Shown: positions 27,975-61,223, counted from the stretch's first letter. The stretch: 64,000 nt of DNA from an uncultured Prevotellaceae bacterium (GCA_946415365.1 CAMKSE010000007.1:13566-77565); one strand, 5' to 3'. Notes: a model not told the origin generated them from the sequence alone. Translations and numbers: made by a program.

Positions 27975-27983
27975 TTTCTAAAT

Positions 27984-29078: not shown

Positions 29079-29081
29079 ACT

Positions 29082-44640: not shown

Positions 44641-45457
44641 CATCAAGATTTTCATTTGTGCCCATAAAGAGGTGCCTCTGCCACAACATCCATACTTCCT
44701 GCCTGTTCAGGCAGGAGCAGCACTGCACGATCTAATCCCCAGCTACCAGCCAGATAATGAGGGAGAAAATATCTCATCTAAAAATCCACATTTCTGTGAG
44801 CTTACCTGCCATTATTGGGCATGGAAGAATTTGAAGAATGTTGATATTATCGGCCTTAATCACTATCGTCGCTATTTCGACTTCCAGAAGAAATGGCCGC
44901 AATTCTCTTCAGATAAACGTTTCATACCAACAGATGAGTTTTTGAAGCACCCCTACATATTTCCCAATCTTGAAGAGATATTACAAAAATATGACATCAT
45001 CCTGCCTGTAGCCCGTCACTGGCGTGTCAGCAATACCAAACAATACGGTGAGTATCATATTGCTAAGGATTGGGAAATGCTCCGTCAGATTATTAAGGAA
45101 CGTTCGCCTCAATATATCCACGCCTTTGAGAAGACGATGGATCACAGTAACAAATCCGTAGGCTACAACATGTTTATCACCAGTTGGAAGCATTTCGACG
45201 CCTATTCCGAGTGGCTCTTTGATATTCTTTTTGAGGTGGAACGGCGGGTCCCCCCTATTAATGACCCCATCCAAAGCCGTATCTATGGCTACATGAGCGA
45301 ACGGTTGATTAATGTTTTCTGCGAACACTATCATCTCCGCATCAAGCACATCCCCCTCATTATGCCACTGGATGATATCAGCAATAAGTTGAACATATCT
45401 AATTTTCATTCTGTCATAAGGAAAATAATTAACAACTATCATTATTACATGAAATGA
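44633..45457 (+). CDS. DUF4422-like putative glycosyltransferase
   Basis: IFICAHKEVPLP...PVQAGAAL...ENISSKNPHFCELTCHYWAWKN...HYRRYF pattern. Overlaps its neighbours by 8 and 4 nt. Confidence 0.65.
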   Translation: MSNIKIFICAHKEVPLPQHPYFLPVQAGAALHDLIPSYQPDNEGENISSKNPHFCELTCHYWAWKNLKNVDIIGLNHYRRYFDFQKKWPQFSSDKRFIPTDEFLKHPYIFPNLEEILQKYDIILPVARHWRVSNTKQYGEYHIAKDWEMLRQIIKERSPQYIHAFEKTMDHSNKSVGYNMFITSWKHFDAYSEWLFDILFEVERRVPPINDPIQSRIYGYMSERLINVFCEHYHLRIKHIPLIMPLDDISNKLNISNFHSVIRKIINNYHYYMK

Positions 45458-46464
45458 AAGAGAGAATTAAATGGGTTGATTGGACAAAAACCATATGTAT
45501 GTTTTTGGTAATTTTAGGACATTGTCATCTTCATGAAACCTACAAGTCAATCACAACAATTATTTACACCTTTCACATGCCTCTTTTCTTTTTCATTTCA
45601 GGTTTACTATGTAGATCAAATTGGAGTGTCAAATCCCTTATAAAGGATATAAAATTCATTCTAATTCCATATATGACGTATGGATTAATAAGCATCTTTA
45701 TTGACAGCTTTCTTTCACACAGATTATCATCTGATGTTATTTACACAGAACTAATCAGATATCTTATGGGTTATGACATTTCTATTGGGCCTATTTGGTT
45801 TCTTCCTGCACTATTTACTTGTAAGCAATTATTTTTCCTTTTTCGTTGTATTGATTATAGCCATTACACTAAATTATTTCTCTTTATCACTTCTTTATTT
45901 CCTATCTATTTCATATTCCATCAAAACATAAATCTTCCTTTTTTTATCGATTCAGGTATTTGTGCACTTCCTTTTTTTTATTTCGGACATTATAGTTCAG
46001 AAATGACAAAAAAGATTAAGCAATTAGCCCCAAGTTCACAGATCATATTATTCATCATCATCATATTATTATTAGTTCCTCTGGGACAGTTGAATGGTTC
46101 TGTAGTAATAGCTGATTGCATATATGGAAACAATCTGTTCTTATACTATATAAACGCATTTATTGGCATAGTTTTAATAATACAAATAAGTATTTCTTTA
46201 GAAAACAAATCGCATCGAATAATCTACACTTTTGCATATGGTTCTATTGTAACCCTAGGGATACATGGATATATTCTTCGCTTCTTTCATTACTATCTTC
46301 CTGTTGCATTAGGATATTACAAACCAACATACTCATTACTGACGGCTTTGTTATACAGCACCTTAGTTTATACGATATGCTTCGCAATAATTCTTGTTAT
46401 AGACAGAACTAAACTTTCCAATATGTTTGGATTAAAAGGTGGAGTAATATCACCTAATAAATAA
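45454..46464 (+). CDS. Acyltransferase-3 family membrane O-acyltransferase
   Basis: WVDWTKTICMFLVILGH...FHMPLFFFISG, about 10 TM helices. Confidence 0.83.
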   Translation: MKERIKWVDWTKTICMFLVILGHCHLHETYKSITTIIYTFHMPLFFFISGLLCRSNWSVKSLIKDIKFILIPYMTYGLISIFIDSFLSHRLSSDVIYTELIRYLMGYDISIGPIWFLPALFTCKQLFFLFRCIDYSHYTKLFLFITSLFPIYFIFHQNINLPFFIDSGICALPFFYFGHYSSEMTKKIKQLAPSSQIILFIIIILLLVPLGQLNGSVVIADCIYGNNLFLYYINAFIGIVLIIQISISLENKSHRIIYTFAYGSIVTLGIHGYILRFFHYYLPVALGYYKPTYSLLTALLYSTLVYTICFAIILVIDRTKLSNMFGLKGGVISPNK

Positions 46465-46498
46465 ACAAACTATATTGTCTGCAGAATTGCTATGACTA

Positions 46499-47284
46499 TT
46501 ATCTCTTTCGACTGCGAATATAAGTAATGATTTTATCTGCAATACATGTATCTAATACCAAGTACCCTTTGGCATTCAAATGCATAAGCCCGCCATCATA
46601 AAGGCCTCTGATATCCTTATAGCCATCAGGATTCCAGTCTTTATATGATATTGTTATCACCTTATTTTCCCATTTTTTTTCCTTTATTAAAGAATTATAT
46701 GCATCGCGATAATCCTGTATACAATCCATCTTTGACCATGTCAAAAGCATAGAAACCAAATATTGTATTTTTATCTGTCTGCTTCTGCGTTTATATGAGA
46801 AATGAATGTCATAAGAAGGTATTTCCAGTACGACGGGTGTTATATGTTTTTCCAATAACAGTTCTATAATGAGCCTCATATTCTCTTTATAATAACTTTT
46901 CCCCATTTTTCTGTCAGAATCATTGATTCCAGCCACTATAAAACAAAAGTCAGGCCCCCATTCTATTACATCTCTGATAGAATCTTCTCTAAAAATACAA
47001 TAATATAAATATTTAGATGTAAGGCCACTAATACCTGCCGTCCTAACGACAACAGGACGTCCTGTAGCATCGCTGACAGAGGAAACAATATCACAATTTA
47101 CATTTTTATGACGATCAGCCCAACTATCACCTATATAGGCGATTCGGATTGTATCGTCTTGATGACACATTACAGACAATCCTTTTTGTTTTTCTGCTGG
47201 AGTAAAATATGGCTTAAGATAATACCCTATACAAACAACTATTAGAGATAATACAAGCAATAACAATAATAACCACCGTCTCAT
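46499..47284 (-). CDS. SGNH/GDSL-family hydrolase with N-terminal membrane anchor
   Basis: ORF 46499..47329. Start MRRWLLLLLLVLSL lies downstream of the -7 box. Block I YIGDSW, block III AGINDS, block V DGGLMHL. Confidence 0.75.
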   Translation of the reverse strand: MRRWLLLLLLVLSLIVVCIGYYLKPYFTPAEKQKGLSVMCHQDDTIRIAYIGDSWADRHKNVNCDIVSSVSDATGRPVVVRTAGISGLTSKYLYYCIFREDSIRDVIEWGPDFCFIVAGINDSDRKMGKSYYKENMRLIIELLLEKHITPVVLEIPSYDIHFSYKRRSRQIKIQYLVSMLLTWSKMDCIQDYRDAYNSLIKEKKWENKVITISYKDWNPDGYKDIRGLYDGGLMHLNAKGYLVLDTCIADKIITYIRSRKR

Positions 47285-47299
47285 ATTCCTATTTTTCTG

Positions 47300-47307
47300 C
47301 AAAATTA
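47300..47307 (-). promoter_or_regulatory. -7 box (taattttg on minus strand) for the SGNH hydrolase gene
   Basis: The complement of caaaatta reads taattttg, 16 nt upstream of the ATG at 47284. Confidence 0.5.
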
Positions 47308-47350
47308 TCAAAAAATAATGAAAGAACATCCATTATTTACAAGAATTTAT

Positions 47351-47358
47351 TAATTTTG
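47351..47358 (+). promoter_or_regulatory. -7 box (taattttg) for the acyltransferase at 47378
   Basis: taattttgcag lies 20 nt upstream of the ATG. Confidence 0.5.
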
Positions 47359-47377
47359 CAGAGACAAGCCACGATAT

Positions 47378-48415
47378 ATGCCACATAACTCTAAAAACAA
47401 TTATATATCAATAGCAAAGGCATTGGGAATCATTCTGATGGTAGTTGGACACTCTGGATGCCCTACTACTATCTGCAGGTTTATCTATCTTTTCCATATG
47501 CCTTTATTCTTTATCTGCTCTGGTTATTTTTTTAAGGATATCTCTGACTGGCCATCACTTCATTCTTTCTATAAGAAAAGAATGAAAGGTTTATATCTGC
47601 CATATTTGAAATGGAGTCTGTTGTTCCTTCTTTTACACAATACATTTCGACATTTACATATCACAGAGAGTGTCATTTACCAGAAAGAAGATTATGTCAG
47701 ACAACTCATAAAGATGATATTTATGACAGACTACGAATTACTGATACGTCCGTTTTGGTTTATTAAAGAATTATTTTTTGCATCTCTAATTGTAGCAACC
47801 ATATCATTTCTTAACTCTCGTCTTTTTGACAAGAAGAAACCTGAGTCGTTTTTTGTGATTGCCATTATTTCTTCTGTCATTTCGAAGTTCGTTTCACCCA
47901 TACCTATAATTGGAGATTGCTCTGTATTGTGCCTTAGTGTTTTATATTATTATACAGGCATTTTAATATACAAATACAAACAGTTTATTCCATTATCATA
48001 CACGACTTTGATATTAACATTCATTATTGTACTATCGGGGAGTTTATTCTTTAAGGGGACTATTGATATGCGATTTACGAATATATATAACCAGATCCCA
48101 TATTACATTTTATCCATCACAGGTATTATTATGATTCTATGTATCTCCCAAAAACTTGAAACAACAAACAAAGTCTCACTACTATATTATATAGGGAATC
48201 ACACGATGCCTATTTTAGCACTTAACCTTTTAGCATTAAAATTTGGAAGTTGCTTAAAAATATGGATATTCGGATTACCCATTGAACAACTGGCATCGTA
48301 TACCGTAATCTACGACTACAATTCATGGTATTGGCTTATATATACAATCATAGGTGTTACTATACCTTTACTGATTCATTTTTTATATCTCAAAATCCTT
48401 CATTGTTTTATTTAA
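47378..48415 (+). CDS. Acyltransferase-3 family membrane O-acyltransferase
   Basis: ISIAKALGIILMVVGH...FHMPLFFICSG, polytopic. Confidence 0.83.
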   Translation: MPHNSKNNYISIAKALGIILMVVGHSGCPTTICRFIYLFHMPLFFICSGYFFKDISDWPSLHSFYKKRMKGLYLPYLKWSLLFLLLHNTFRHLHITESVIYQKEDYVRQLIKMIFMTDYELLIRPFWFIKELFFASLIVATISFLNSRLFDKKKPESFFVIAIISSVISKFVSPIPIIGDCSVLCLSVLYYYTGILIYKYKQFIPLSYTTLILTFIIVLSGSLFFKGTIDMRFTNIYNQIPYYILSITGIIMILCISQKLETTNKVSLLYYIGNHTMPILALNLLALKFGSCLKIWIFGLPIEQLASYTVIYDYNSWYWLIYTIIGVTIPLLIHFLYLKILHCFI

Positions 48416-48468
48416 CGTTAATATGAGAGTTTTTTTTCTTTTTCTTTTGAAATCACAAATAAAGTTAG

Positions 48469-48476
48469 TAAATTTG
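48469..48476 (+). promoter_or_regulatory. -7 box (taaatttg) for wzm/wzt
   Basis: Lies 19 nt upstream of the ATG at 48495. Confidence 0.5.
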
Positions 48477-48494
48477 CACTAAATTTGAATTCCT

Positions 48495-49346
48495 ATGACC
48501 AAAGATTGGGATATTATTATAACTAATAGAAGTAAACTACTAAGTGTAGATTTGCATGAAGTTTGGCGATATCGCGATTTACTTTCGATGTATGTAAAAC
48601 GTGATATCATCACATTTTATAAGCAAACGATTCTTGGTCCGTTATGGTTTATTATCCAACCACTCTTCACCACCATCATGTTTATGTTTGTATTTGGTGG
48701 CATTGCCGGAATCTCTACAGATGGTATTCCCCAAGCTGTTTTCTATCTGGCAGGATTAGTCTGTTGGAACTACTTCCAAGATTGCCTCAGCAAATGTTCT
48801 GATACATTCAATGCCAATCAGGCAATCTTCGGCAAAGTTTACTTCCCACGATTAGTAGTTCCCTTGTCTATCGTCATTTCAAATCTGATTAAGATGGCCA
48901 TCCAATTTGTATTGTTCTTGGTCGTTTATATATATTATTTTGCATCCGGTGTGGACTTCCATATCAATGCCACGATTCTTCTTGTTCCTTTACTCATCGT
49001 TATGCTTGGATGTTTGGGGCTTGGCTTTGGAATGATCATCTCATCTATGACAACAAAGTATCGCGACCTCAGGTTTTTAATTACATTTGGAGTCCAACTA
49101 TGGATGTATGCGACACCAGTTATTTACCCTCTTTCTGTGATGAAGGAAACCTACCCCAAATATATTTGGGTTTTAGTTGCAAACCCCTTGACTGCCATTC
49201 TGGAAACCTTTAAATACGCTTTTACTGGCGTTGGAGAATTCAACTGGCTTTATTTAGGATACAGTTTTGTTTTTACCATCATCATTCTCTTACTCGGCAT
49301 TGTGATTTTCAACCGCGTACAGCGCAACTTTATGGATGTCATTTAA
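48495..49346 (+). CDS. wzm: Polysaccharide ABC transporter permease (ABC-2 type, Wzm-like)
   Basis: Six TM helices with the ABC-2 pattern, next to the Wzt-like ATPase. Confidence 0.87.
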   Translation: MTKDWDIIITNRSKLLSVDLHEVWRYRDLLSMYVKRDIITFYKQTILGPLWFIIQPLFTTIMFMFVFGGIAGISTDGIPQAVFYLAGLVCWNYFQDCLSKCSDTFNANQAIFGKVYFPRLVVPLSIVISNLIKMAIQFVLFLVVYIYYFASGVDFHINATILLVPLLIVMLGCLGLGFGMIISSMTTKYRDLRFLITFGVQLWMYATPVIYPLSVMKETYPKYIWVLVANPLTAILETFKYAFTGVGEFNWLYLGYSFVFTIIILLLGIVIFNRVQRNFMDVI

Positions 49347-49358
49347 ACTATCTTGGCT

Positions 49359-50630
49359 ATGAGCAATACAGTTATAGAATTCAATAACGTAGGCAAACAA
49401 TATATCCTCGGTACCATTGGTACTGGCACATTAAGCCAGGACCTCAATCGCTGGTGGGCCAATATCCGTGGGAAGGAAGATCCCTATCTGAAAATCGGCG
49501 AAACGAATGACCGTACCCAGAAAGGCTACAGCCGGTTTGTATGGGCACTCCGTGATATTAATTTCAAAGTAGAGCAAGGCGATGTAGTTGGCATCGTGGG
49601 GAAAAATGGTGCGGGAAAATCGACTTTATTGAAGATTCTTTCTCGCGTCACCTCCCCTACTACTGGCGACATCAAGATTAAAGGACGTATTGCTTCACTC
49701 CTTGAGGTCGGTACAGGTTTCCATCCAGAGATGACTGGCCGTGAAAATATCTTTATGAACGGATCAATCATGGGTATGACCAAAACAGAGATCAAGAGTA
49801 AGTTCGATGAGATTGTGGACTTCGCTGGTGTAGCCAAATACGTCGACACCCCTGTCAAACGATATTCTTCTGGTATGATGGTTCGATTGGGTTTTGCCAT
49901 TGCAGCCCATTTGGAACCAGAGATACTCGTAGTTGATGAAGTCCTTGCCGTCGGTGATGCAGAATTCCAGAAGAAAGCCATCGGAAAAATGCAAGAGGTC
50001 AGTAAAGGGCAAGGCCGTACAGTCCTCTTTGTCAGTCATAATATGGCTGCTGTAAAAAGCCTCTGTACAACGGGAATTGTATTACAGAATGGTATGACTG
50101 CATTTGCTGGTGATATTGATAAAACACTTAAGTTCTATCTGAAAGAGACACCAGAAACCAACGACGGGATGATACAAGATGCCATCAAACATAAAAAAAA
50201 GGATATCGAATTTAAGCGAATTCAAATTAACGGAACAGAACAACGTAATAGTACTATCACAAGTGATCAAAAAATGCTATCTCTTCGTATAGAAGGATAC
50301 ACTCCAGAAGAAATAAAAACAGATGTTATGTTGGTGCTTAAAACAAAAGACGGCATCCCTTTGGCTACTTTGGCAGAAGGCCACTATAAAGGTCTTATCC
50401 AAACCATTCCTGCAGGTGATTTTATCATTCAGAAGGAAATATGTCTGCCTGAATTTCTCTCTAATGGTCAACTCTATTGCGATCTGATGATGCATCACCC
50501 CATGGTTGAATGGCAACTACAAGCACCTAATTGTTGTGTCTTGGACTGCGAAGGACACCAAGAAGGATATGGTAGTGCCATTAACCAGCATCAATTTGGC
50601 TTCATGGGATTAATAAGTAATAATTCATAA
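49359..50630 (+). CDS. wzt: Polysaccharide ABC transporter ATP-binding protein with extra C-terminal domain (Wzt-like)
   Basis: ORF 49353 starts at a TTG; the ATG at 49359 gives MSNTVIEF. Walker A GKNGAGKST, signature YSSGM, Walker B ILVVDE. About 175 additional C-terminal residues. Confidence 0.88.
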   Translation: MSNTVIEFNNVGKQYILGTIGTGTLSQDLNRWWANIRGKEDPYLKIGETNDRTQKGYSRFVWALRDINFKVEQGDVVGIVGKNGAGKSTLLKILSRVTSPTTGDIKIKGRIASLLEVGTGFHPEMTGRENIFMNGSIMGMTKTEIKSKFDEIVDFAGVAKYVDTPVKRYSSGMMVRLGFAIAAHLEPEILVVDEVLAVGDAEFQKKAIGKMQEVSKGQGRTVLFVSHNMAAVKSLCTTGIVLQNGMTAFAGDIDKTLKFYLKETPETNDGMIQDAIKHKKKDIEFKRIQINGTEQRNSTITSDQKMLSLRIEGYTPEEIKTDVMLVLKTKDGIPLATLAEGHYKGLIQTIPAGDFIIQKEICLPEFLSNGQLYCDLMMHHPMVEWQLQAPNCCVLDCEGHQEGYGSAINQHQFGFMGLISNNS

Positions 50631-50639
50631 GACAACAGA

Positions 50640-51758
50640 ATGAAAAAAAACATAATAACTGTTACATCTCCTCTTTTACCAAATCTTGATGAGTTTCATG
50701 ATTTGCTAAAAGACATATGGGAAAAGAGATGGATCACAAATAATGGCTCATATCATCAACAGTTGGAAAAAGCTCTTGCAGAATATCTGAAGGTACCATT
50801 TGTGAGTTTATTTACAAATGGAACACTCCCCCTGATTACAGCATTGCAAGCATTAAGGATAACCGGCGAAGTCATCACAACACCCTATAGTTTCGTTGCA
50901 ACGACTCATGCGTTATGGTGGAATGGTATTAAACCGGTATTTGTTGATATTGATCCGAATAACGGATGTCTTGACCCAAACAAGATAGAAGCCGCAATTA
51001 CGCCTAAGACGACGGCAATCATGCCTGTTCATGTTTATGGAATGCCATGTAACACAAAGGCAATTCAAGATATTGCTGACAAATATGGTCTCAAAGTCAT
51101 ATATGATGCAGCTCATGTTTTTGGTGTTGAAGTCAATGGCGAAAGCATTCTGAATGCTGGAGACATGGCTACGCTCAGTTTCCATGCCACAAAGGTTTAC
51201 AATACGATAGAAGGCGGCGCAATGATTATGCATGACGAGAAAACAAAGCAACGTATTGATTTTTTAAAGAACTTCGGATTTGCCAATGAGATTGAAGTTG
51301 TTGCCCCTGGTATCAATTCGAAAATGGATGAAATGCGTAGCGCTTATGGATTGTTAAATTTGAAGCAAGTTGACAATGCAATCAAAGCCCGGCATGAAGT
51401 AGCTGATAAATACCGTGAAGCACTTCGTGGCGTTCCCGGGATCTCATATTGGGAAGATATTACTGGGGTTAAACATAATTATTCGTATTTACCCATTTTT
51501 GTAGATTCAAAAGAATACGGAATGACTCGCGATGAACTCTATTTTAAAATGAGAGATGAAAATGTATATGGGCGACGCTATTTCTATCCTTTAATCAGCA
51601 CATTTTCTACATATCGCGGACTGCCAAGTGCAACCAAGGAGAATCTGCCAATAGCAACAAAGATGGCAGATGAAGTTATTTGCCTACCTATGCATCACGC
51701 ATTAAGTGATGATGATATTCATAGAGTTGTTAGATGTATTCAAAAGAATTACAAATGA
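50640..51758 (+). CDS. DegT/DnrJ/EryC1/StrS-family sugar aminotransferase
   Basis: PLP-lysine context SFHATKVYNTIEGG, typical length. Confidence 0.9.
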   Translation: MKKNIITVTSPLLPNLDEFHDLLKDIWEKRWITNNGSYHQQLEKALAEYLKVPFVSLFTNGTLPLITALQALRITGEVITTPYSFVATTHALWWNGIKPVFVDIDPNNGCLDPNKIEAAITPKTTAIMPVHVYGMPCNTKAIQDIADKYGLKVIYDAAHVFGVEVNGESILNAGDMATLSFHATKVYNTIEGGAMIMHDEKTKQRIDFLKNFGFANEIEVVAPGINSKMDEMRSAYGLLNLKQVDNAIKARHEVADKYREALRGVPGISYWEDITGVKHNYSYLPIFVDSKEYGMTRDELYFKMRDENVYGRRYFYPLISTFSTYRGLPSATKENLPIATKMADEVICLPMHHALSDDDIHRVVRCIQKNYK

Positions 51759-53032
51759 AATCTGACAAAGAATTAAAAGGGAAAAAACTCCTGATTTTGG
51801 CAGGTGCAGATGTCCATGTCAAAGTTGTTAATGCCGCTAAAGAACTAGGGGTATATACAATCGTTACAGATTACTTATCCCCTCAGGAATCTCCAGCGAA
51901 ACTGATTGCAGATGAGTTCTGGATGCTGGACATTAAAGACACAGATGGAATTGTTGAGAAATGTCGGAAAGAATCTGTCGATGGTGTTCTTGCTTTTTGT
52001 ATCGACCCCGCACAAATACCATATCAACAAATTTGTGAAAAATTAGATGTTCCATGTTATGGAACAAAAGAACAATTTAAGATATTAACAAACAAACGCT
52101 TTTTCAAGCAATATTGTCTAAAACATGGTGTGGATGTTATACCTGAATATTCCATTAATGATGCTTATGAAGGAAAAATAACTTTCCCTGTTTTGATAAA
52201 GCCAACAGATAGTCGTGGTTCTAGAGGTCAAACGGTTTGCTATTCTCAGGATGAGATTGAAAATGCCATTCTTGTTGCAAGAAAAGAATCTAAAGACAAT
52301 GGTGTCATTATTGAGCATTATATGTTGGGCAAGCAGGACATGTCTTTTGCCTATATCGTTATAAACAGTGAACCATATTTGTTGAAAATTGGTGACCGAA
52401 TATTGGGTAAAGTTGAAGACAATCTAGAAAGGCAACAAATTGCGACAATTCTTCCATCTCGCCATATAGTACAATACCGACGCGATATAGAACCAAAGGT
52501 AATTGAAATGATAAAATCATTAGGAATCACATTTGGTGCCGTTTTCTTACAAGGATTTTGGAATAATAATCGCGTATATATGTACGATCCCGGATTGAGA
52601 TTTCCCGGGTCAGATTTTGACGTCGTGATGAAAATGGCAACAGGATTTGACAACATGAAATCCTTTGTTCACTTCGCACTTACAGGAGATGTATGCAGTC
52701 AATATGGAATTCCCCAAAATGCATGTGAGTTAAATGGCGGCATATGTATAATCCTTTCTGTATCATGTCGTGCAGGCAGAATTATGGTATTTGACGGTAT
52801 GGATATTATAAAAGCAAGTCCAAGTGTTCTATCAGCAAGCCAACGCCATCATGTTAATGATATTATATTTCCATCAGGCGATATTCAACAAAGGGTTGCA
52901 GAATTTGTTGCATTCCTCCCTAATAGAGCTTCTATAGAAACATTTTTATCTTTTGTATACGATAATCTAACTATTCTTGACGAAGAAGGTAAGGATATGA
53001 TCATATCAAAAATCAGTAAAAATCAATTATAA
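51755..53032 (+). CDS. ATP-grasp domain protein (putative amide ligase)
   Basis: ORF 51734..53032. The ATG at 51755 overlaps the upstream TGA. KKLLILAG pre-ATP-grasp region, FPVLIKPTDSRGSRG, and YMYDPGLRFPG in the C-terminal half. Confidence 0.78.
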   Translation: MKSDKELKGKKLLILAGADVHVKVVNAAKELGVYTIVTDYLSPQESPAKLIADEFWMLDIKDTDGIVEKCRKESVDGVLAFCIDPAQIPYQQICEKLDVPCYGTKEQFKILTNKRFFKQYCLKHGVDVIPEYSINDAYEGKITFPVLIKPTDSRGSRGQTVCYSQDEIENAILVARKESKDNGVIIEHYMLGKQDMSFAYIVINSEPYLLKIGDRILGKVEDNLERQQIATILPSRHIVQYRRDIEPKVIEMIKSLGITFGAVFLQGFWNNNRVYMYDPGLRFPGSDFDVVMKMATGFDNMKSFVHFALTGDVCSQYGIPQNACELNGGICIILSVSCRAGRIMVFDGMDIIKASPSVLSASQRHHVNDIIFPSGDIQQRVAEFVAFLPNRASIETFLSFVYDNLTILDEEGKDMIISKISKNQL

Positions 53033-53040
53033 GAACAAAC

Positions 53041-54276
53041 ATGAAAAGAGACCTATCATATTTAGCATCATGCCCTATTGCTGTTTTAGGAGCAGGAGCC
53101 GTGGGTAAGACTTTAGCTGCTGATTGTAAATTAGCAGGTCGTGAAGTTCGTCTATATTCACGCAGCAAGAAATCTATTGCCCTAGTAGAAAGGACTGGTA
53201 TCCTTATGGATGGCATTCAGAGAAACCTATATGGTTTTGAGCGGTCTGGTCGAGCTTTCGTAGATATTGTCACCAATGACATGGCAGAAGCAGTAAAGGG
53301 TGCGAAACTAATTCTAATGTCTGTTCCGGCTTTGGCTCATGAGGATTACTTGAAGAAATTAGTCCCTTTGTTAGAGGATGGTATGATCATTCATACATTC
53401 CCTGACAATTACGCAAGCTTTCTCCTTCGGAAATTTATGCGAGAATTGGGTTGTACCAAAGATGTTATCATTGGAGGATGGGGAAGTGCGCCTTATGGCA
53501 CACGCATTGAAAAGGTTCAAGGTTTTTGGACAAACCATGTAGGAATTAAATACCGAGCGATTTCTTTACGTGGAGCATGCCTTCCTATGAGCGACATGGA
53601 TGACTTTATTGAAAGCGGCAGGTATCTGCCCTGTATGGATTCCGTTTATACAGGGAATGGCCCGGAAAGAGGCGACACAATGCTTGACATTGGTTTCTCA
53701 AATGTTAATCCCGTCATTCATGTTCCCGCGTCATTGCTAGGAGTTTCTAGTATGGAGAACTGGTCTCTTGTATACGGCAATGCCCCAGATAGTTATTCCA
53801 TGTATTCCCATGGGTTATGTCCATCCATTTGCCGTGTACAATATCAATTTTATCAAGAAGAGGTCAATATAGCAAAGGCTATCGGGATTGATTATCCGAA
53901 GTATGAATATGAAATGTTCTTCTCGCGTCGCTCCATTCTTACACAAGAATATATGGGTTTAGATGAAAACGGAAAAGACAACGTAGTCTTCCCGCTTGAT
54001 AAACCATGCGATGAGGGTAATACCGGCCCTAACAATATTCATCATCGGTATATTACCGAAGACATCCCTGTGGGCTGTAAGATATATCATGACTTAGGTT
54101 TAAAATTTGGCGTCCCGACACCTATCATTGATTCTATGATTGTTCTTGGTGGTGCCATGCATGAAAAAAGTTTCTTTGAAGAAACAAAATATGATCTTGA
54201 TTATATAGGAATTGGCAGTTTAACAAAAGAAGAATTAAGGAACTATTTGTATAATGGGGGCTATGTCAACAAATGA
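53041..54276 (+). CDS. NAD(P)-dependent opine (octopine/nopaline) dehydrogenase-family protein
   Basis: Rossmann motif VLGAGAVGKT, NVNPVIHVP, and C-terminal HRYITEDIPVG, the hallmark of the Octopine_DH family. Confidence 0.75.
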   Translation: MKRDLSYLASCPIAVLGAGAVGKTLAADCKLAGREVRLYSRSKKSIALVERTGILMDGIQRNLYGFERSGRAFVDIVTNDMAEAVKGAKLILMSVPALAHEDYLKKLVPLLEDGMIIHTFPDNYASFLLRKFMRELGCTKDVIIGGWGSAPYGTRIEKVQGFWTNHVGIKYRAISLRGACLPMSDMDDFIESGRYLPCMDSVYTGNGPERGDTMLDIGFSNVNPVIHVPASLLGVSSMENWSLVYGNAPDSYSMYSHGLCPSICRVQYQFYQEEVNIAKAIGIDYPKYEYEMFFSRRSILTQEYMGLDENGKDNVVFPLDKPCDEGNTGPNNIHHRYITEDIPVGCKIYHDLGLKFGVPTPIIDSMIVLGGAMHEKSFFEETKYDLDYIGIGSLTKEELRNYLYNGGYVNK

Positions 54277-55216
54277 GATAAAAGGGGCATCCCCGCTTGT
54301 CAGCATTATCTGTGATGTTTTTAACCATGAAGAATATCTCAGAGAATGCCTAAATGGACTTGTTTATCAAAAAACAGATTTTGATTATATTATTCTTATT
54401 CATGATGATGCATCCACAGACTCTTCTCCACAAATTATTAATGAATTTGTGGAGAAGTATCCCAAGTTATTTGAACCGATTATTCAAAAGGTTAATCAGT
54501 ATTCTCAAGGAATTGGCATTTGGAAGACATATCAATTTCCAAGAGTACATACGAAATATGTCGCCTTTTGCGAGGGTGATGACTATTGGATAGATCCAAT
54601 GAAACTTCAGAAGGAGGTAGATTTCCTTGAGTCACATCCAGACTATTCTGCAGTTCTTGGAAATATTATTGTAAGAGACGAGACAATACACCCAACAATT
54701 GAGACACCATCATCACAAACTGAAAGAATCTTTACGCTTAAAGACGTTTTGGGTGGAACTCTATTCCCAATAGCATCAATTTGTGTGAGACAAATAGTAA
54801 TTGATAATTGGGACAACTCGATTAATTCTAACGGCGACATGATATTAGCGTATACTGCTACATCTATTGGAGAAGTATATATGCTAAATGATTGCATGTC
54901 TGTTTATAGGCGTACGGGAAAAGGAGTCTGCACTTCTAAAGATCGCTCTCAACAACTTGTTGCTGGATTCAAAGAATATTACAGTTTTCACAAGCAACTA
55001 CATTTCCCCCAACCACATACTCTTATACATTACCAATCTCAAGCAATTGTAAGATTTATTTGTAATGAAGGATTATTTCGTCTACCATTTTTAGATATCA
55101 TAAGTTACATAAGATTCAAATATACACTATTATACATTTATTATATTATCTCTCTTTTAGCTAAGCATTTATATAATCTCTCATATCACTATTTTTCCAC
55201 TAAAGCCGAACAATAA
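54263..55216 (+). CDS. Glycosyltransferase family 2
   Basis: ORF 54254..55216. VSIICDVFNHEEYL...HDDASTD...CEGDDYW motifs. Confidence 0.85.
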   Translation: MSTNEIKGASPLVSIICDVFNHEEYLRECLNGLVYQKTDFDYIILIHDDASTDSSPQIINEFVEKYPKLFEPIIQKVNQYSQGIGIWKTYQFPRVHTKYVAFCEGDDYWIDPMKLQKEVDFLESHPDYSAVLGNIIVRDETIHPTIETPSSQTERIFTLKDVLGGTLFPIASICVRQIVIDNWDNSINSNGDMILAYTATSIGEVYMLNDCMSVYRRTGKGVCTSKDRSQQLVAGFKEYYSFHKQLHFPQPHTLIHYQSQAIVRFICNEGLFRLPFLDIISYIRFKYTLLYIYYIISLLAKHLYNLSYHYFSTKAEQ

Positions 55217-55233
55217 TAAAAAACAATTAAACA

Positions 55234-56190
55234 CTATCGCCGAACTAATGAAAAAATCCAAAAGAAAGGTGAATCTGCCAGCCAAAATAACAATTTATTC
55301 TTTATCGGAAATGCTATTTCTTTCCAGACTTTATTGCTTTCTGGGAAAAGTTTGCGCCATCGCTTAATATCATAACAATTATTGTCGAGCAACAATGGTA
55401 GCTTAGAAATAAACTTACGTTTTAATAGATCGCTTTTAACTACTTCTAATACACCTTTCTCCCGATAGAAATCCTCTGTTTTACGGATGGCAGCGGCCTG
55501 GCTTTCTACAGCGAAGACGGTAGTATGAGTATAATTATTGGGATTATACTGTATCCAGTGGTACATACAACGATCAACACCTGCAAATCTTTGAGCATAA
55601 TAGAATATTTGACAGCAAAACAAATAGTCGTCTACCATATTCCTGTCAGGAATAAAACGTACCTCATCACGATGCTCGGTGACTATAGTACTGCGCACTA
55701 ATAGTTTCCACATCACTCCTTTTATAGTAAGAAGTGTGATTGCACGCATCATTTCATTATGGTCATTTGTGTATTTCTGAGGATGTTCCACGCTGTGATT
55801 AGCATATTCTTCAACATAGCCACAACCTGAAATATCTGCATTTTCTTTTTGGGCAGCGTCTACTAATAACTCTACCATATCCTTATCAATATAGTCATCA
55901 CTATCAACAAACAAGAAATAGTCACCTGTCATATTATCCAAACAATCATTGCGAGAAGCAGAAATACCAAGATTTTTATCATGGATAATTATCTTACACT
56001 TATCGGCGACATCATATTTAGCAATATATTCATTAATGACCTCCATGCTTTTATCTGGGGTACAGTCATTAACAAAAACATATTCAATATTCGGATAGGT
56101 TTGAGTAAATAGAGACTCCACACAACGTCCAACATACTTTTCCACTTTATAAAAGGGGACTAGAATTGACACTTTAGTATTCTGTTCCAT
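55234..56190 (-). CDS. Glycosyltransferase family 2 (318 aa)
   Basis: VSILVPFYKVEKYV...VNDCTPD...FVDSDDY motifs. Confidence 0.87.
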   Translation of the reverse strand: MEQNTKVSILVPFYKVEKYVGRCVESLFTQTYPNIEYVFVNDCTPDKSMEVINEYIAKYDVADKCKIIIHDKNLGISASRNDCLDNMTGDYFLFVDSDDYIDKDMVELLVDAAQKENADISGCGYVEEYANHSVEHPQKYTNDHNEMMRAITLLTIKGVMWKLLVRSTIVTEHRDEVRFIPDRNMVDDYLFCCQIFYYAQRFAGVDRCMYHWIQYNPNNYTHTTVFAVESQAAAIRKTEDFYREKGVLEVVKSDLLKRKFISKLPLLLDNNCYDIKRWRKLFPESNKVWKEIAFPIKNKLLFWLADSPFFWIFSLVRR

Positions 56191-56191
56191 C

Positions 56192-57148
56192 TTATCTTTT
56201 TAACAACTTTAATAACAAAAACAATTTATGTTCAGCAAGCCAAAATTCAAAACGCTCTTTTTTCGAATAATTCATTTCTTTCCAAATCCCTTTTGCTTCT
56301 GGAAATATCTTTATGAACGCATTGGGATTGAATAATTTCTTATTTAATATATAATTACTCTTTATATTAAACTTTCTCAAAAGTAATTGATGTTCAACAT
56401 CACCATCATACATTTTATTATCACGAAAGAAGCACTCCACTTCATTTACACACTTAATATGATCATTAATACTACACAACAACTGAAAAGATAATCGATT
56501 CTGATTATATTGAACATAATGATAAAATGCCTTACGAAGTATAGAAAAGCTATTTGCATAATAAAATAGTTTAATAGACATAATATAGTCCTCACCAATA
56601 TTAATCGGACTGATATGGAAATTATCAAATAATCTTCTTCGGATTAATAATTTCCACAGCACCGTTGCAATATCATAGTTAATGCATTTCAACATATTCT
56701 CAATACATGTTTTGGCATAGTCTTCTTGGCAATAGAGCATTTTTCCAGATGAGAATTCTTTTATGAAATCACAACCAACAATGTCAATATCCCCACCTTC
56801 CGTAGAAGCAACCATTTGCTCAACTGTATCTCTTTCAATCCAATCATCACTATCAACAAACAGAATATAGTCTCCCTTGGCATTGGCAATACATTCTGCT
56901 CTTGAAACTGCAATACCTTCGTTATGTGCATGGGTTATAATAGTATATTTATTTGTATCAATTCTATGCTTGCTTATCGTGGACATAAGAACCTGCAAGC
57001 TTGCATCAGGAGAACAATCGTCCACAAAGACATAATTTATATTTATATACGTTTGTGAAAATATGGAGTCCAGTGCTTTTTCAAGATACTGTTCCACCTT
57101 AAATATAGGCATTAATATTGATACATTGATATTACACTCCATTATCAT
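56192..57148 (-). CDS. Glycosyltransferase family 2 (318 aa), tandem paralog of 55234..56190
   Basis: VSILMPIFKVEQYL...VDDCSPD...FVDSDDW. The C-terminal region is collinear with its neighbour. Confidence 0.87.
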   Translation of the reverse strand: MIMECNINVSILMPIFKVEQYLEKALDSIFSQTYININYVFVDDCSPDASLQVLMSTISKHRIDTNKYTIITHAHNEGIAVSRAECIANAKGDYILFVDSDDWIERDTVEQMVASTEGGDIDIVGCDFIKEFSSGKMLYCQEDYAKTCIENMLKCINYDIATVLWKLLIRRRLFDNFHISPINIGEDYIMSIKLFYYANSFSILRKAFYHYVQYNQNRLSFQLLCSINDHIKCVNEVECFFRDNKMYDGDVEHQLLLRKFNIKSNYILNKKLFNPNAFIKIFPEAKGIWKEMNYSKKERFEFWLAEHKLFLLLKLLKR

Positions 57149-57942
57149 TCCTTTACAAAATGTAGTATTATAGAACCCAATCTATACATCAACTTGTCTA
57201 TCTTGAAATGTTGACGAAATCGGGGAGTCAAGGACTGCGTCAGACACTCAGATTTTTTCATGAATTGATAATCAGCAAGAACTCTTGAAGGAAACATTTC
57301 CGACAAGACTTGGTCTTTTTCTTTCCACATCTTATCAGGATTGGAAGTACTCACCCCACTAGTATCAAATCTAGTTACATTCACATTGACATATTTAATT
57401 GAACAATTATGTATAACAATTGCCTGAACAAAAAATTTCCAATCTGATACTATCTTCAATCGTTCATCGTATGGAAATAAACGAAGTAATTCTGTTTTAA
57501 TAAAAGAACTTTGATGAGGGACGGTTCCCGAATAAAGATAATACAAAGATATTGGTCTTGATGGAGAGGCAAATAAGTATTTGTTATCTTTTTCCGACAC
57601 AATCTTTCCAACAAGGATATCTTCTTCTAAGCTTAATATGGCAACACTATCTAAGACATTATCGTCATAAAAGCAGTCTCCGGAGTTTAAAAAGATACAA
57701 TACTCACCACGAGCCTGTGCAACACCCTTATTCATGGCATGATAGATACCACGATCTTTTTCTGTAATCCAATAATCTATTTGGTTTGCATTATCTTTAA
57801 TAGTATCGACACTTCCATCTGTAGAACCTCCATCTATAATAATAAATTCAAAATCTCTATAGGATTGACTTACAACGCTCTTAATTGTATGGGACAATCC
57901 TATATTATTGTTATAATTGATTGTAATAACAGAATACTTCAT
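57145..57942 (-). CDS. Glycosyltransferase family 2
   Basis: YSVITINYNN...IIDGGSTDGS...FLNSGD. The -7 box tacttttg lies upstream on the minus strand. Confidence 0.87.
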   Translation of the reverse strand: MKYSVITINYNNNIGLSHTIKSVVSQSYRDFEFIIIDGGSTDGSVDTIKDNANQIDYWITEKDRGIYHAMNKGVAQARGEYCIFLNSGDCFYDDNVLDSVAILSLEEDILVGKIVSEKDNKYLFASPSRPISLYYLYSGTVPHQSSFIKTELLRLFPYDERLKIVSDWKFFVQAIVIHNCSIKYVNVNVTRFDTSGVSTSNPDKMWKEKDQVLSEMFPSRVLADYQFMKKSECLTQSLTPRFRQHFKIDKLMYRLGSIILHFVKE

Positions 57943-58141
57943 TGCGACAAAAGTACGAATAATTTTTGATTAATGCAAGTATTTCACATAAAAAGTGTAT
58001 CTTGTTTGTAAGATATCAAGTCCATATCGAGGATTATACAATATAAATTATTGTTGTCAGATAAAAACGGAATTGATTAAACCCTTCTGAATCATTGTAA
58101 TTGACCGAAATCATGGAAAGTTTCACCAGTTTATTCTTTTA

Positions 58142-59287
58142 TTATTTTGCAAGTTCCATTTGATCTATTATACTCATAAATCTTTTCGACCAAGCATCCC
58201 ATGAGAGTCTCTCTGAATACAATCTTAATGCACCTTGATGTAGATGGGAGATATTATTAGACTCAATATCCTTTGAGATCTGGTCTGCGAATTCCTCAGC
58301 TCCGAGATTCGGCGACAAAGCATAGCCATTTACCCCACTAACTACATAATTCTCAGTTCCACCTGTAGCATATGTGTAGGTTGGAATACCGAAACCTGCA
58401 GCCTCAGAGAACACGATTCCTGCACATTCTGCTTGAGTCGGTAACAACATGATATGACTATTCTTATATAGTTCTATATACCTGCGATATGCCTCTGGAT
58501 TATTCTTGTTCAGGAATCCATGATTCTTGACAAAACTATATTGCTGACAATACTCTGGAAGTTCCTTTATTCCCACAATATTAAGAATAGCATCATAGCC
58601 TCTCCCTCTCAATAATTGCACAGTCTGCACAGCAACATCGCCACCTTTCCTTTCCCATTCTACTCCAGAAAAAAGAATCTGCAAGACCCCTCCCTTATAG
58701 GGAATATTAGGATGGATATCCGATTCATCAATGCATGCCCCAAACTCCAGAACGACACATCTCGAAGGATTGCTTCGGCAATCTTCAATAACACTATTTA
58801 TAGCCCACTGGGAAGCTCGAATATTTAAGAAAGCTTTCTGTGATGCTTTTCTTTCTAAAAGACATGCCATCTTAACAGAAAGAGGGTGACATTTTTTCCA
58901 ATAATAATTATTCATAAGATATGCAGTAGCATCAGAATAATATAGGATTGGCTTTTTCGTCCTCAAAAACAATCCAATCTGACCTCCCCGAGGAAAGAAC
59001 AACACATCACACTTATTAAATAATTCATTCTTCCTAATCGACTTAGCATATCCATATGCAACTGGAAGGAAGTGAACACCTCCCAAAATCAGTTTTTTAC
59101 CACATATATTATAAACTTTCCATCTTAATTTTTCAAACATGCGAACAAATTTGGTATTCATGTCAAACGGAATCCAAACAACTTGAAATCCAGCCTTTTC
59201 TATAGATTCCCTAATCTTGAATAAAAGACCACTCCATGCATAACGATCCTTAAATGGATCGGTTTCACAAACATACCCAATTACCAT
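58142..59287 (-). CDS. Glycosyltransferase family 4 (GT-B, Glycos_transf_1)
   Basis: C-terminal E(x7)E-type region (LLPTQAECAGIVFSEAAGFGIPT). The -7 box tatctttg lies upstream on the minus strand. Confidence 0.87.
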   Translation of the reverse strand: MVIGYVCETDPFKDRYAWSGLLFKIRESIEKAGFQVVWIPFDMNTKFVRMFEKLRWKVYNICGKKLILGGVHFLPVAYGYAKSIRKNELFNKCDVLFFPRGGQIGLFLRTKKPILYYSDATAYLMNNYYWKKCHPLSVKMACLLERKASQKAFLNIRASQWAINSVIEDCRSNPSRCVVLEFGACIDESDIHPNIPYKGGVLQILFSGVEWERKGGDVAVQTVQLLRGRGYDAILNIVGIKELPEYCQQYSFVKNHGFLNKNNPEAYRRYIELYKNSHIMLLPTQAECAGIVFSEAAGFGIPTYTYATGGTENYVVSGVNGYALSPNLGAEEFADQISKDIESNNISHLHQGALRLYSERLSWDAWSKRFMSIIDQMELAK

Positions 59288-59465
59288 ATACGATTATCAT
59301 TTTTAAGCAGGATTAACTAAACAATAATTTTACTTGTGCAAAGATAGCTATTTATTTCTGAAAAAACAGTATTTTTGCTGAAAAAAATTTATTTGTATGT
59401 ATTATTCTAATTATCATCCTTTCATAATGCCTTTATCACACAAACGATTCCATTTTTCATTTACC

Positions 59466-61223
59466 TTATTGCCAAATATAACCAGACAACAGCCTGGCAT
59501 AGTAACGTGCACCTATAGGAGTAAGGTGTTTACCATCGTAAGTTATAAATTTATGTTCAGATGTAAAAACGAGGACTGTGCTGTCTGATTGAAGCGATAG
59601 ACTCAATAAGTCAATAAAATTACCATGCCATTCTTCATTAAGTAAGCGATTAACTGAAAAGAAATCTTTTCTAAGGGTTGTCTTCTGTGCATAATAGTCA
59701 GGACGATGACGATTCTTGTAAAAGATGCCATTGCTAGTTCCATGATTCTTTGTACCAATGCCCCAGATTTCAGATCCTGCTCTGAGATTCTTCCAAACAA
59801 CCTCAGGTACCTCATGCTTCCATCCGAAGAAATAAATACGGTCGCTCTGGCGGATACGACTTAGCGGACAATCTTCGATGCCATAATGATAAGATAACTG
59901 GATACTATCTCTTAGTGGTGACTCAAGCAGAATATTTGCAAAGTCACGTGCAAAGCTGTTACCTATGACAAGAATCTTCTTTTTCGAATTGTCTTGAGAG
60001 AACTCACGATCATATTGATAGATACGGTCTGTGTAGTATTCAAAGATCATAGGATCGGTCTCACCCTCACGGATGCCTAATTCTGGAATATCTCTTACAA
60101 TTCCACCTTTCTGGTATATCCACAATGCAAAGGCATTGACAATTAAGAAAGAAAAGACCAAGCATACCCGTGATGTTATATTTATTGTTATACGCCTCTC
60201 AATGATATAATAGGTGAAAACAGATAGCAAAAGAGCAAGTCCTATCAAACAGGCCAATATGCTTGGCGAGAGTTCATCGGCAAAGAAATAACGATAGAAG
60301 GCAAACAAAGGCTGATGCCATAAGAAGATACTTAAACTCATGCGTCCAATGGGTGCAAGGATCTTTGACTTGCGGGCAAAGGCTGTCAGCCTGTTGTCAG
60401 TATGACTCTGGAAGCAAGACATCAATGCAAAGGACACCGTCAATATCACCATCACCTCTCGAGGCAGAAAACTCTCTCGAATCGTGTTTGTGCCTCCAAC
60501 AAGATTATATGGCATTGCTCGTTCACCTATCGTAAAGGCTCCAAAGAAAATCATCAGAAACAGACCAACTACAGAGAAGTACTTCATAGATGTAGAGACT
60601 CTTGGAGCTCTGATAGCTACCAATCCACCTATAGCAATCTCAAAGAATCGATATGACAGCAGATAATATTTATTGCCAATACTGTCAACAGGCAACAGAT
60701 ATAGTAGAAGCGATAAAAATGTCAGGACAATCAATGTCATCTTCATCCGACGTTTTACCACAAGCATCAGCAACGGAAATACCACATAGAACTGGAAAAG
60801 TACACCTAAGAACCATGTATGCATCAGGACCTTCTGATAGATGGCGGCCCAGTAGTTCTGTGTGGTGATAGCTTGAAGCACATTATTCATAAAAGTTGAA
60901 GCAGCGACAGCCTCCTCACTCAGAAAACGCAAATCATTAGGTAACATTCCCCAATACCCTATCGCTAATGACAGGACGCTCACGATCAATACCAAAGGCA
61001 ACAGACGAAAGATCTTTTTCTCTATAAACGTCCAATATCTGAACCGTCCTTCATCAATCTGTCTCATTACCTGAGGCACAACCAAATAACCGTTAAGTAC
61101 AAGAAACAAATCAACCCCAAGGTATCCGCTCTTGCACCAACCTGCATGATAGAGTACAACGGCAATGATAGCCAGTCCTTTCAGCAAGTCCAGATCATAT
61201 CGATAAAAGTCTCCTCCCACCAC
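59466..61223 (-). CDS. Fused acyltransferase-3 plus C-terminal SGNH domain O-acetyltransferase (OafA/YrhL-like)
   Basis: ORF 59466..61379. AT3 N-terminus LDLLKGLAIIAVVLYH. C-terminal SGNH-like blocks VIGNSFARDF and DGKHLT. The start is uncertain: the upstream in-frame ATGs lie across the divergent promoter, so GTG at 61223 (or 61220), downstream of the -7 box tatttttg, is proposed. Confidence 0.75.
   Translation of the reverse strand: MVGGDFYRYDLDLLKGLAIIAVVLYHAGWCKSGYLGVDLFLVLNGYLVVPQVMRQIDEGRFRYWTFIEKKIFRLLPLVLIVSVLSLAIGYWGMLPNDLRFLSEEAVAASTFMNNVLQAITTQNYWAAIYQKVLMHTWFLGVLFQFYVVFPLLMLVVKRRMKMTLIVLTFLSLLLYLLPVDSIGNKYYLLSYRFFEIAIGGLVAIRAPRVSTSMKYFSVVGLFLMIFFGAFTIGERAMPYNLVGGTNTIRESFLPREVMVILTVSFALMSCFQSHTDNRLTAFARKSKILAPIGRMSLSIFLWHQPLFAFYRYFFADELSPSILACLIGLALLLSVFTYYIIERRITINITSRVCLVFSFLIVNAFALWIYQKGGIVRDIPELGIREGETDPMIFEYYTDRIYQYDREFSQDNSKKKILVIGNSFARDFANILLESPLRDSIQLSYHYGIEDCPLSRIRQSDRIYFFGWKHEVPEVVWKNLRAGSEIWGIGTKNHGTSNGIFYKNRHRPDYYAQKTTLRKDFFSVNRLLNEEWHGNFIDLLSLSLQSDSTVLVFTSEHKFITYDGKHLTPIGARYYARLLSGYIWQ

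Follow-up and report, generated by a model that had tools for sequence, protein, structure and literature searches.

Why should a gene for an opine dehydrogenase lie among the genes for a surface glycan? The question is raised by a stretch of 64,000 nucleotides from an uncultured Prevotellaceae bacterium (GCA_946415365.1, CAMKSE010000007.1:13566-77565), called the window below. At positions 50,640 to 54,276, three genes encode in turn a DegT-family sugar aminotransferase, an ATP-grasp ligase and an opine dehydrogenase (ODH). An original prediction, made from the sequence of the window, placed these overlapping or abutting genes directly after wzm and wzt, and the coordinates and junctions of the open reading frames (ORFs) bear this out. 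Its three family calls were also right: PF01041, ATP-grasp (PF02786/PF07478) and PF02317 all match above their cut-offs.

The answer favoured here is tentative, at somewhat less than an even chance. The three genes, with the GT2 glycosyltransferase gene that follows them, may form a four-gene sugar-tailoring cassette in an ABC-transporter-dependent surface-glycan locus. ODH would make a free opine, and the ligase would link that opine through an amide bond to a nucleoside diphosphate (NDP)-4-amino-6-deoxyhexose. The substrates, the order of the steps, the identities of the sugar and the opine, and the role of GT2 are all predictions in what follows.

The enzymes of the cassette

The four genes lie on the + strand, and their operon structure can be read directly from the junctions. 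The stop codon of DegT overlaps the start of the ATP-grasp gene in the ATGA at 51755-51758. The gap from the ATP-grasp stop to ODH is eight nucleotides (nt), and the reading frames of ODH and GT2 share 23 nt. The DegT, ATP-grasp and ODH ORFs are all intact, with lengths that agree with those of their homologues. The longest ATP-grasp ORF begins at 51734 (432 amino acids, aa), and database gene calls give 425 aa; the start is likely to be 51755, in the overlap with the DegT stop.

The ODH gene (53041..54276, + strand) encodes 411 aa and is the predicted acid-maker of the cassette. By family and by catalytic residues it is a true opine dehydrogenase, its catalysis being predicted. Residues 212-374 cover the whole Octopine_DH profile, PF02317, at 107.2 bits (1e-30) against a cut-off of 30. 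The Rossmann domain is marked by LGAGAVG at residues 16-22 and by matches to PF01210, PF03807 and PF02558 at residues 13-117. The motifs quoted in the original prediction are present in the translation, NVNPVIHVP at 221-229 and HHRYITEDIPVG at 334-345.

Two known enzymes, CENDH from Arthrobacter sp. 1C (Protein Data Bank (PDB) 1bg6) and octopine dehydrogenase from Pecten (3c7a), share with the window ODH a two-domain architecture, GxGxxG and a catalytic His/Arg/Asp. In HMMER alignments CENDH matches residues 11-401 at E 1.5e-20, and R324 and D329 of octopine dehydrogenase fall on the RY(I/L)TED motif of ODH. CENDH H202 aligns to H227 (in NVNPVIH), and CENDH R292 and D297 align to R336 and D341 (in HHRYITED). 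The window ODH has both the catalytic His and the Arg/Asp of RYxxED that mark opine dehydrogenases. H227, R336 and D341, with G17, G19 and G22 of GxGxxG, are invariant in 26 members of the ODH clade. The known enzymes join an amino acid to pyruvate by reductive condensation at the expense of NAD(P)H, and the window ODH is expected to do the same. Unlike in architecture, the window ODH stands apart from them in sequence (about 24-30% identity) and is about 50 residues longer than CENDH. After strand beta-2 it reads YSRSKK where CENDH has the acidic WDID, and this replacement suggests a preference for NADPH over NADH.

Alternatively, this Octopine_DH-family enzyme could yield a hydroxy acid. Like the related ketopantoate and D-mandelate dehydrogenases, it would reduce a 2-oxo acid, giving a lactate- or glycerate-like 2-hydroxy acid with which the ATP-grasp enzyme would N-acylate the amino sugar. 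O-antigens often contain N-(hydroxyacyl) amino sugars (PMC10609480). The N-terminal domain of ODH also matches ApbA/PanE and glycerol-3-phosphate dehydrogenase models, and D-mandelate dehydrogenase and ketopantoate reductases appear among its fold matches. These reductase models, however, match the Rossmann domain only (residues 13-117), while PF02317 scores 107 bits and the best full-length match is a true opine dehydrogenase with the catalytic residues aligned. In the fold search, CENDH and the octopine, yersinopine, staphylopine and pseudopaline dehydrogenases all outrank D-mandelate dehydrogenase, the ketopantoate reductases and glycerol-3-phosphate dehydrogenase; the AlphaFold model behind this search is weak (pLDDT 61, below 50 in the active-site regions) and served for coarse fold ranking only. 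The hydroxy-acid route is judged improbable. As predicted, the product of the gene at 53041 groups with opine dehydrogenases, not with glycerol-3-phosphate or ketopantoate reductases.

The DegT gene (50640..51758, + strand) encodes 372 aa and is the amine-maker. PF01041 spans residues 18-367 (326 bits, 4.4e-97) and the translation contains SFHATK, a motif with the pyridoxal phosphate (PLP) lysine, so that the protein belongs to the DegT/DnrJ/EryC1 family. Its best NCBIfam model is TIGR04427, DesI, at 300.7 bits against an equivalog cut-off of 650, which leaves it outside the equivalog. Its best PDB match is DesI (2po3) at 224 bits; all others reach at most 158, with perosamine synthase at 149. 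The enzyme resembles DesI/VioA-type dTDP-4-keto-6-deoxy-D-glucose 4-aminotransferases in fold, in the PLP-lysine motif and in these best scores. Most likely it is an NDP-4-keto-6-deoxyhexose 4-aminotransferase of the DesI type, and the best guess for its product sugar is 4-amino-4,6-dideoxy-D-glucose (Qui4N). With a score below the DesI cut-off, its nucleotide and stereochemical specificity is only presumed, and GDP-4-keto-6-deoxymannose is a possible substrate. Orthologues 63-85% identical to it occupy the same position in other loci.

The window itself contains a source of that GDP-sugar. Positions 26907-30251 encode manC (an NTP_transferase with the ManC beta-helix), a GDP-mannose 4,6-dehydratase (gmd, 27984-29078) and a 389-aa epimerase/reductase. 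The manC/gmd pair, about 20 kb upstream of the cassette, could supply a branch that leads to fucose, rhamnose or perosamine.

A uronate had also been offered as the acceptor. In such a route, the ATP-grasp enzyme would attach lysine or ornithine to the C6 carboxylate of a uronic acid, ODH would carboxyethylate the distal amine, and DegT would serve another sugar. Amides of this kind exist, since N-epsilon-(1-carboxyethyl)-lysine is found on galacturonic acid (GalA) (PMC10609480), and the Treponema-type loci (L006, L017) have a UDP-sugar dehydrogenase family gene 6 kb upstream. A UDP-sugar 6-dehydrogenase homologue was looked for and found nowhere in the 64-kb window, and the uronate part of the original prediction is left unsupported. 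DegT, moreover, is translationally coupled to the ligase and co-conserved with it, and ODH would have to act on a side-chain amine bound to a polymer or a sugar. A uronate acceptor is therefore considered very improbable.

The ATP-grasp gene (51755..53032, + strand; 425 aa, lineage A) would encode the coupling enzyme. It matches PylC-like_N, PF02786 at 28.3 bits (cut-off 19.8) and PF07478 at 24.4 bits (cut-off 24), and these matches place it in the superfamily. Its AlphaFold model is good (pLDDT 91). In Foldseek the best TM-scores, 0.76-0.81, go to the L-amino-acid ligase BL00235 (3vot), followed by 4dim, BacD and RizA. By E-value the uncharacterised 4dim ranks first and 3vot second, with E-values of 1e-25 to 1e-27 and TM-scores of 0.7-0.8 against ATP-grasp ligases. 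Sequence similarity to 3vot is low (about 17% identity; phmmer E-value 0.0056). K149, E187, D278 and R282 are invariant in 21 relatives, and we assign them as putative ATP-grasp motif residues.

In ATP-grasp ligases, a carboxylate is activated so that an amine can attack it. Because its fold is nearest to the L-amino-acid ligases (BL00235 3vot, BacD/YwfE 3vmm and RizA 4wd3; TM-scores 0.63-0.81), the window enzyme fits a predicted carboxylate-amine ligase that would share their chemistry, an acyl-phosphate intermediate followed by amide formation. Unlike those ligases, to which it is about 15-17% identical, it would use a sugar amine as nucleophile and an imino-diacid as donor. Enzymes of the window type also differ from them in always lying in glycan loci, with either an ODH or a PrpD-like gene as neighbour.

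Recurrence of the cassette and the proposed order of its steps

In the proposed pathway, DegT would make a nucleotide-activated 4-amino-4,6-dideoxyhexose, most likely the dTDP form of Qui4N, from a 4-keto-6-deoxy precursor supplied from elsewhere in the genome. With NAD(P)H as reductant, ODH would join a free amino acid to a 2-oxo acid, for which pyruvate is the default guess. The product would be a free opine, that is, an N-(1-carboxyalkyl) amino acid such as alanopine. The ATP-grasp enzyme would activate one carboxylate of the opine as an acyl phosphate and link it through an amide bond to the 4-amino group of the sugar. GT2 (54254..55216, + strand; PF00535, 3.8e-15), the candidate transferase for the decorated sugar, would then transfer the opine-acylated sugar onto the glycan, and Wzm/Wzt would export it. 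The substituent would retain a secondary amine and a free carboxylate, and would thus be zwitterionic. Other loci would vary this scheme: a PIG-L deacetylase in DegT's place would expose the sugar amine, and in sister loci a PrpD-like enzyme would make a different acid.

The opposite order had been proposed originally, in which the amino sugar is first aminoacylated. The ATP-grasp enzyme would load an ordinary amino acid onto the NDP-amino sugar, and ODH would then reductively alkylate the sugar-bound alpha-amine, using pyruvate or some other 2-oxo acid and giving the same final product. The gene order DegT, ATP-grasp, ODH parallels these steps, and the L-amino-acid ligases nearest in fold activate ordinary amino acids. 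Amine-capped aminoacyl-Qui4N residues (N-acetyl-glycyl, 3-hydroxybutanoyl-D-alanyl) are common in O-antigens (PMC7685785; PMC10609480). The distribution of the cassette bears on the choice between the two orders.

A search for the cassette in other glycan loci, as the original prediction had suggested, found the order DegT, ATP-grasp, ODH, often with GT2, in dozens of independent contigs from several phyla. Such recurrence shows that the arrangement is not due to chance. ODH forms a single tight clade whose members are 66-93% identical to the window enzyme, and the next relatives share only 40-43% identity. When a library is clustered at 50% identity, one full-length representative (73% identical) and fragments are all that is left of the clade. 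The 90%-identity cluster of ODH holds 721 member sequences, and 1,285 homologous clusters are found at E <= 1e-5. Two of the members of the 90% cluster, of 145 aa, carry the label 'transposase' from a source (P0392, P0393) and are probably mis-annotated fragments. ODH is split into two ORFs in L033:8350-9601, L034:9980-11238, L046, L053 and L092, by a frameshift, a pseudogene or an assembly error.

The clade spans at least six phyla (Bacteroidota, Fibrobacterota, Spirochaetota, Bacillota, Actinomycetota and Chloroflexota), so the earlier focus on Bacteroidota was too narrow. Carriers in Bacteroidota are Xylanibacter ruminicola Ga6B6 (93%, and so probably close kin to the bacterium of the window), Paludibacteraceae, Porphyromonadaceae, Alistipes, Butyricimonas and Parabacteroides. 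Beyond that phylum they include Fibrobacter, Treponema, Sphaerochaeta, Dialister, Oscillospiraceae, Sporofaciens, Eubacterium, Ruminococcus, Coriobacteriia, Eggerthellaceae and Flexilinea. All sources are gut or rumen: host-associated anaerobes of the rumen and of the human, mouse and horse gut.

Wherever the flanking sequence suffices, ODH is found in a polysaccharide locus that contains Wzx or Wzm/Wzt, together with Wzy, Wzz, glycosyltransferases and phosphoglycosyl transferases. This setting bears on whether ODH and the ATP-grasp enzyme could instead make a soluble opine, such as a metallophore, osmolyte or signal, and lie in a glycan locus by chance or co-transfer. Opine dehydrogenases are chiefly familiar as makers of soluble opines and opine metallophores, and the staphylopine, pseudopaline and yersinopine enzymes are among the fold matches of ODH. 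In the CntKLM systems that make these three metallophores, too, tailoring by an Octopine_DH-family enzyme is part of a dedicated bacterial operon. Three of the nearest outgroup ODHs, which belong to the relatives at 40-43% identity, also lie outside glycan loci, next to a proline racemase and an MFS transporter, regulators, or methylmalonyl-CoA mutase genes.

The window clade, in contrast to CENDH and octopine dehydrogenase with their soluble opines, is found only in glycan loci of host-associated anaerobes. It is embedded in the polysaccharide loci of six phyla, among flippases or Wzm/Wzt, glycosyltransferases and sugar aminotransferases, and in the window ODH is operonic with DegT and GT2. 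Unlike CntKLM, the window has no nicotianamine-synthase-like CntL, histidine racemase or metallophore transporter near the cassette, and its ODH is partnered by an ATP-grasp ligase in a glycan-assembly setting. A soluble product is regarded as extremely improbable.

The pairing of ODH with an ATP-grasp gene is observed directly. In 28 of 30 non-redundant loci anchored on ODH, an ATP-grasp gene lies at most 3 kb away, usually directly upstream. The two exceptions are L012, which ends at a contig edge, and L032, where the nearest ATP-grasp gene is 4.1 kb off. At least six lineages are represented among the partners. Besides the window type, they comprise an ATP-grasp_3 type of 390 aa that occurs with a PIG-L deacetylase and a Bac_transf gene, a Treponema type, ATP-grasp_4 types, PylC-like types, and a type with an MmgE/PrpD-family gene between it and ODH. 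The amine-making gene differs as well, being a DesI-like DegT, another DegT type (26-28% identity) or a PIG-L deacetylase.

ODH changes far less than its neighbours. Compared with the window, ODH has a median identity of 86%, DegT of 66%, ATP-grasp of 61% and GT2 of 39%, and ODH is more conserved than ATP-grasp in 35 of 36 loci. It remains 79-87% identical where the neighbouring aminotransferase is of the other type (26-28%), and 76-87% identical where a PIG-L deacetylase and a phosphoglycosyl transferase take the place of the aminotransferase. Within Bacteroidota, ODH identity is 84.9% beside the same ATP-grasp class and 86.1% beside a different class; over the whole set it tracks phylum, not partner class. 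Since ODH stays constant while ligase lineage and sugar pathway vary, its reaction looks independent of the sugar, and the ligase appears to vary with the acceptor.

GT2 homologues lie directly downstream of ODH in many loci (160-220 bits; 27-44% identity by blastp where alignable), for instance L009, L010, L011, L013, L018, L050, L059, L061, L065, L067, L069 and L094. By this synteny, GT2 is taken as part of the cassette unit. In two other loci, ODH is followed by two small hydrophobic proteins (111-120 aa) and then by a different DegT type (L021:11225-11919, L072:8511-9184). From their size and hydrophobicity, these give the impression of paired small flippase subunits, and the decorated sugar may be carried on polyprenyl phosphate there.

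The search was also run in reverse, by scanning metagenome contigs, some of them too short to judge, with an alignment of the window-type ATP-grasp. In 28 loci the ligase is at least 57% identical to the window enzyme and ODH follows it directly. In 18 loci a sister clade of ligases (50-55% identical) is followed by an MmgE/PrpD-family gene, with no ODH. These sister-cassette loci are L075, L077-L079, L081-L091, L093, L096 and L098; the ligase lies at about 6001-7250 and the PrpD-like gene directly downstream (at L078:7285-8649, for example). In several of them the same DesI-like aminotransferase is still present, scoring 660-716 bits. Among solved structures, the PrpD-like protein comes nearest to B. 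subtilis IRG1, which is cis-aconitate-decarboxylase-like, and to iminodisuccinate epimerase.

The ligase family thus appears to sit between a variable amine-maker and a variable acid-maker. A swap of ODH for PrpD beside the ligase makes sense only if both enzymes supply the acyl donor. The sister cassette is independent support for a logic of acid-maker, amine-maker and ligase.

In a further group, an MmgE/PrpD-family gene lies between ATP-grasp and ODH (L008:8620-9966, L012:930-2270, L016:8633-9982, L020:8634-9971, L034 and L049). Its product is matched best in the PDB by iminodisuccinate epimerase (2hp3, E 1.5e-23), whose substrate is an imino-diacid resembling an opine. The intervening enzyme may epimerise or otherwise modify the opine.

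The free-opine order is favoured on these grounds. ODH is indifferent to sugar pathway and ligase lineage, and the ODH/PrpD swap implies the supply of an acyl donor. Characterised opine dehydrogenases (CENDH, octopine dehydrogenase, CntM) use amine substrates that carry a free alpha-carboxylate, which aminoacylation of the sugar would consume in the amide. If ODH acted on the sugar, it would also have to accept what at least six unrelated ligase lineages make on different sugars. It is nevertheless 79-87% identical among them and does not co-vary with ligase class. Nor would the PrpD-family enzyme of the sister cassette have an obvious role on an aminoacyl sugar. Three loci with the lineage A ligase, however, have neither ODH nor PrpD (L054, L070, L074), a pattern that would suit a ligase able to use a standard amino acid. 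Taken together, an on-sugar order is unlikely, though it is to be taken seriously, and aminoacylation first is not the best fit to the near-invariance of ODH.

Several points weigh against the free-opine pathway. The high conservation of ODH could reflect recent horizontal spread, and ODH may recognise a sugar-linked substrate by its aminoacyl end alone, in which case the on-sugar order would hold. The poor ODH model makes analysis of the pocket impossible. On the sugar side, DegT scores well under the DesI cut-off, rmlA and rmlB were looked for and are absent from the 64-kb window, and a GDP-perosamine-type sugar may be made instead, gmd being in the window. Finally, some relatives of the ligase are fused to a PglD-like acetyltransferase domain, which the simple scheme leaves unaccounted for.

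These fused ligases, of about 650 aa, have an N-terminal PglD_N/hexapeptide-repeat acetyltransferase domain followed by ATP-grasp (L041:8001-9953, L043:8001-9962; further variants are P0278, P0279, P0287-P0292, P0296, P0298 and P0303). Their loci keep DegT upstream and ODH and GT2 downstream. A separate hexapeptide-repeat gene occurs between DegT and the ligase in L019 and downstream of ODH in L028.

Opines in O-antigens and a possible mobile tagging module

Opine substituents of glycans are known from chemistry, through NMR of a few O-antigens. In the O-antigen made by Providencia alcalifaciens O35, Qui4N is N-acylated with (2S,4S)-alanopine, N-[(S)-1-carboxyethyl]-L-alanine (PMC10609480). 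In P. rustigianii O14, N-epsilon-(1-carboxyethyl)-lysine is carried on GalA, and amides of this type occur in Providencia and Proteus (PMC10609480). Both the chemical precedent and the glycan-locus setting cited in the original prediction are therefore real. The predicted product of the window, an opine amide-linked to a 4-amino-4,6-dideoxyhexose, is of the same class as the O35 structure, and the DesI-like aminotransferase fits Qui4N. The two cases differ in that the Providencia and Proteus glycans are known only as chemical structures from Enterobacterales, whereas the window provides genes, from a rumen member of Bacteroidota.

The original prediction knew of no genetically defined route to this chemistry. 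In agreement with this, a literature search whose coverage excluded most subscription-journal papers, such as those of Carbohydrate Research and the ones on Providencia and Proteus gene clusters, found no gene assignment for alanopine or carboxyethyl-lysine substituents of glycans. Within the same coverage, it found no paper that links opine dehydrogenase genes to glycan loci. Each enzyme family of the cassette is known, and it is their combination and breadth that appear new.

A broader reading is offered with more reserve than the pathway itself. The cassette may be a horizontally mobile opine-tagging module, spread over at least six phyla, in which a near-invariant opine synthase works with interchangeable ATP-grasp ligases to place a zwitterionic tag on lineage-dependent amino sugars. 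It would be the first genetic route to O-antigen opines, and one branch of a logic of amine, acid and ATP-grasp ligase that has the PrpD cassette as its sister.

The cassette offers a concrete three-enzyme hypothesis for O-antigen opine substituents for which no assigned genes were found, and because cultivable carriers exist (X. ruminicola Ga6B6, Fibrobacter sp. UWEL, Sporofaciens musculi WCA-9-b2, Butyricimonas), that hypothesis is directly testable. Gut Bacteroidales have zwitterionic surface polysaccharides that are known to modulate immunity. If the module is real, it would be an unrecognised and widespread route to zwitterionic glycans, relevant to host-microbe and phage-receptor biology. 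Gut and rumen metagenomes contain the cassette in abundance. An ATP-grasp enzyme able to join imino-diacids to the amines of sugars would have value as a biocatalyst, and so would an opine synthase of anaerobic origin.

The glycan locus around the cassette

The cassette ends a run of six closely spaced genes on the same strand, called as ORFs at 48.5-55.2 kb, with wzm first and GT2 last. The spacers are, in order, 6, 9, -4, 8 and -23 nt. wzm (48495..49346, + strand) encodes an ABC-2 type glycan-export permease (PF01061 ABC2_membrane, 7.9e-19), and wzt (49353..50630, + strand) the glycan-export ATPase (PF00005, 1.9e-22), with a C-terminal extension of about 160 aa. Wzm has Wzm/KpsM-type NCBIfam matches and Wzt has TagH/Wzt-type matches at 170-215 bits, in both cases under the equivalog cut-offs. 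With permease and ATPase adjoining and glycosyltransferase genes all around, the locus has the features of an ABC-transporter-dependent (Wzm/Wzt) glycan pathway.

The nucleotide-binding domains of Wzt at other cassette-bearing loci are about 75% identical to that of the window. Residues 265-425, the C-terminus, have no Pfam match and no detectable similarity to the Wzt C-termini at those loci. The extension may be a strain-specific glycan-binding domain. An idea that the opine sugar serves as a chain-terminating cap read by this domain was dropped, the C-terminus being unlike those of the other cassette-bearing loci.

Beyond GT2 lie convergent glycosyltransferase genes. The region from 33.7 to 62.3 kb also carries seven GT2 genes and one GT4 glycosyltransferase gene, one DUF4422 gene, four AT3 acyltransferase genes, a Wzy_C/WaaL-like gene and a Bac_transf gene. 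A scan of 46-60 kb for promoters found 82 promoter-like sites against 65.4 ± 8.4 in shuffled sequence, using a sigma-70 consensus that is not appropriate for Bacteroidota. The matching scan for terminators found 5 against 7.6 ± 2.6. Both counts are near chance expectation.

Two further genes stand out by their position. An ORF of 725 aa at 35946-38123, which no Pfam model matches, is flanked by an OEP-like gene and the Wzy_C (O-antigen-ligase-like) gene. At 43057-44640, among glycosyltransferase genes, a predicted AAA-ATPase with a PD-(D/E)XK nuclease domain (PF09820 and PF08011) has no obvious role in glycan synthesis.

Base composition also changes along the window. G+C content is 32-39% across 44000-60000, the glycan-assembly part, against 45-55% in the first 32 kb. 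Low G+C of this kind is typical of horizontally exchanged polysaccharide loci, and it fits the spread of the cassette across phyla.

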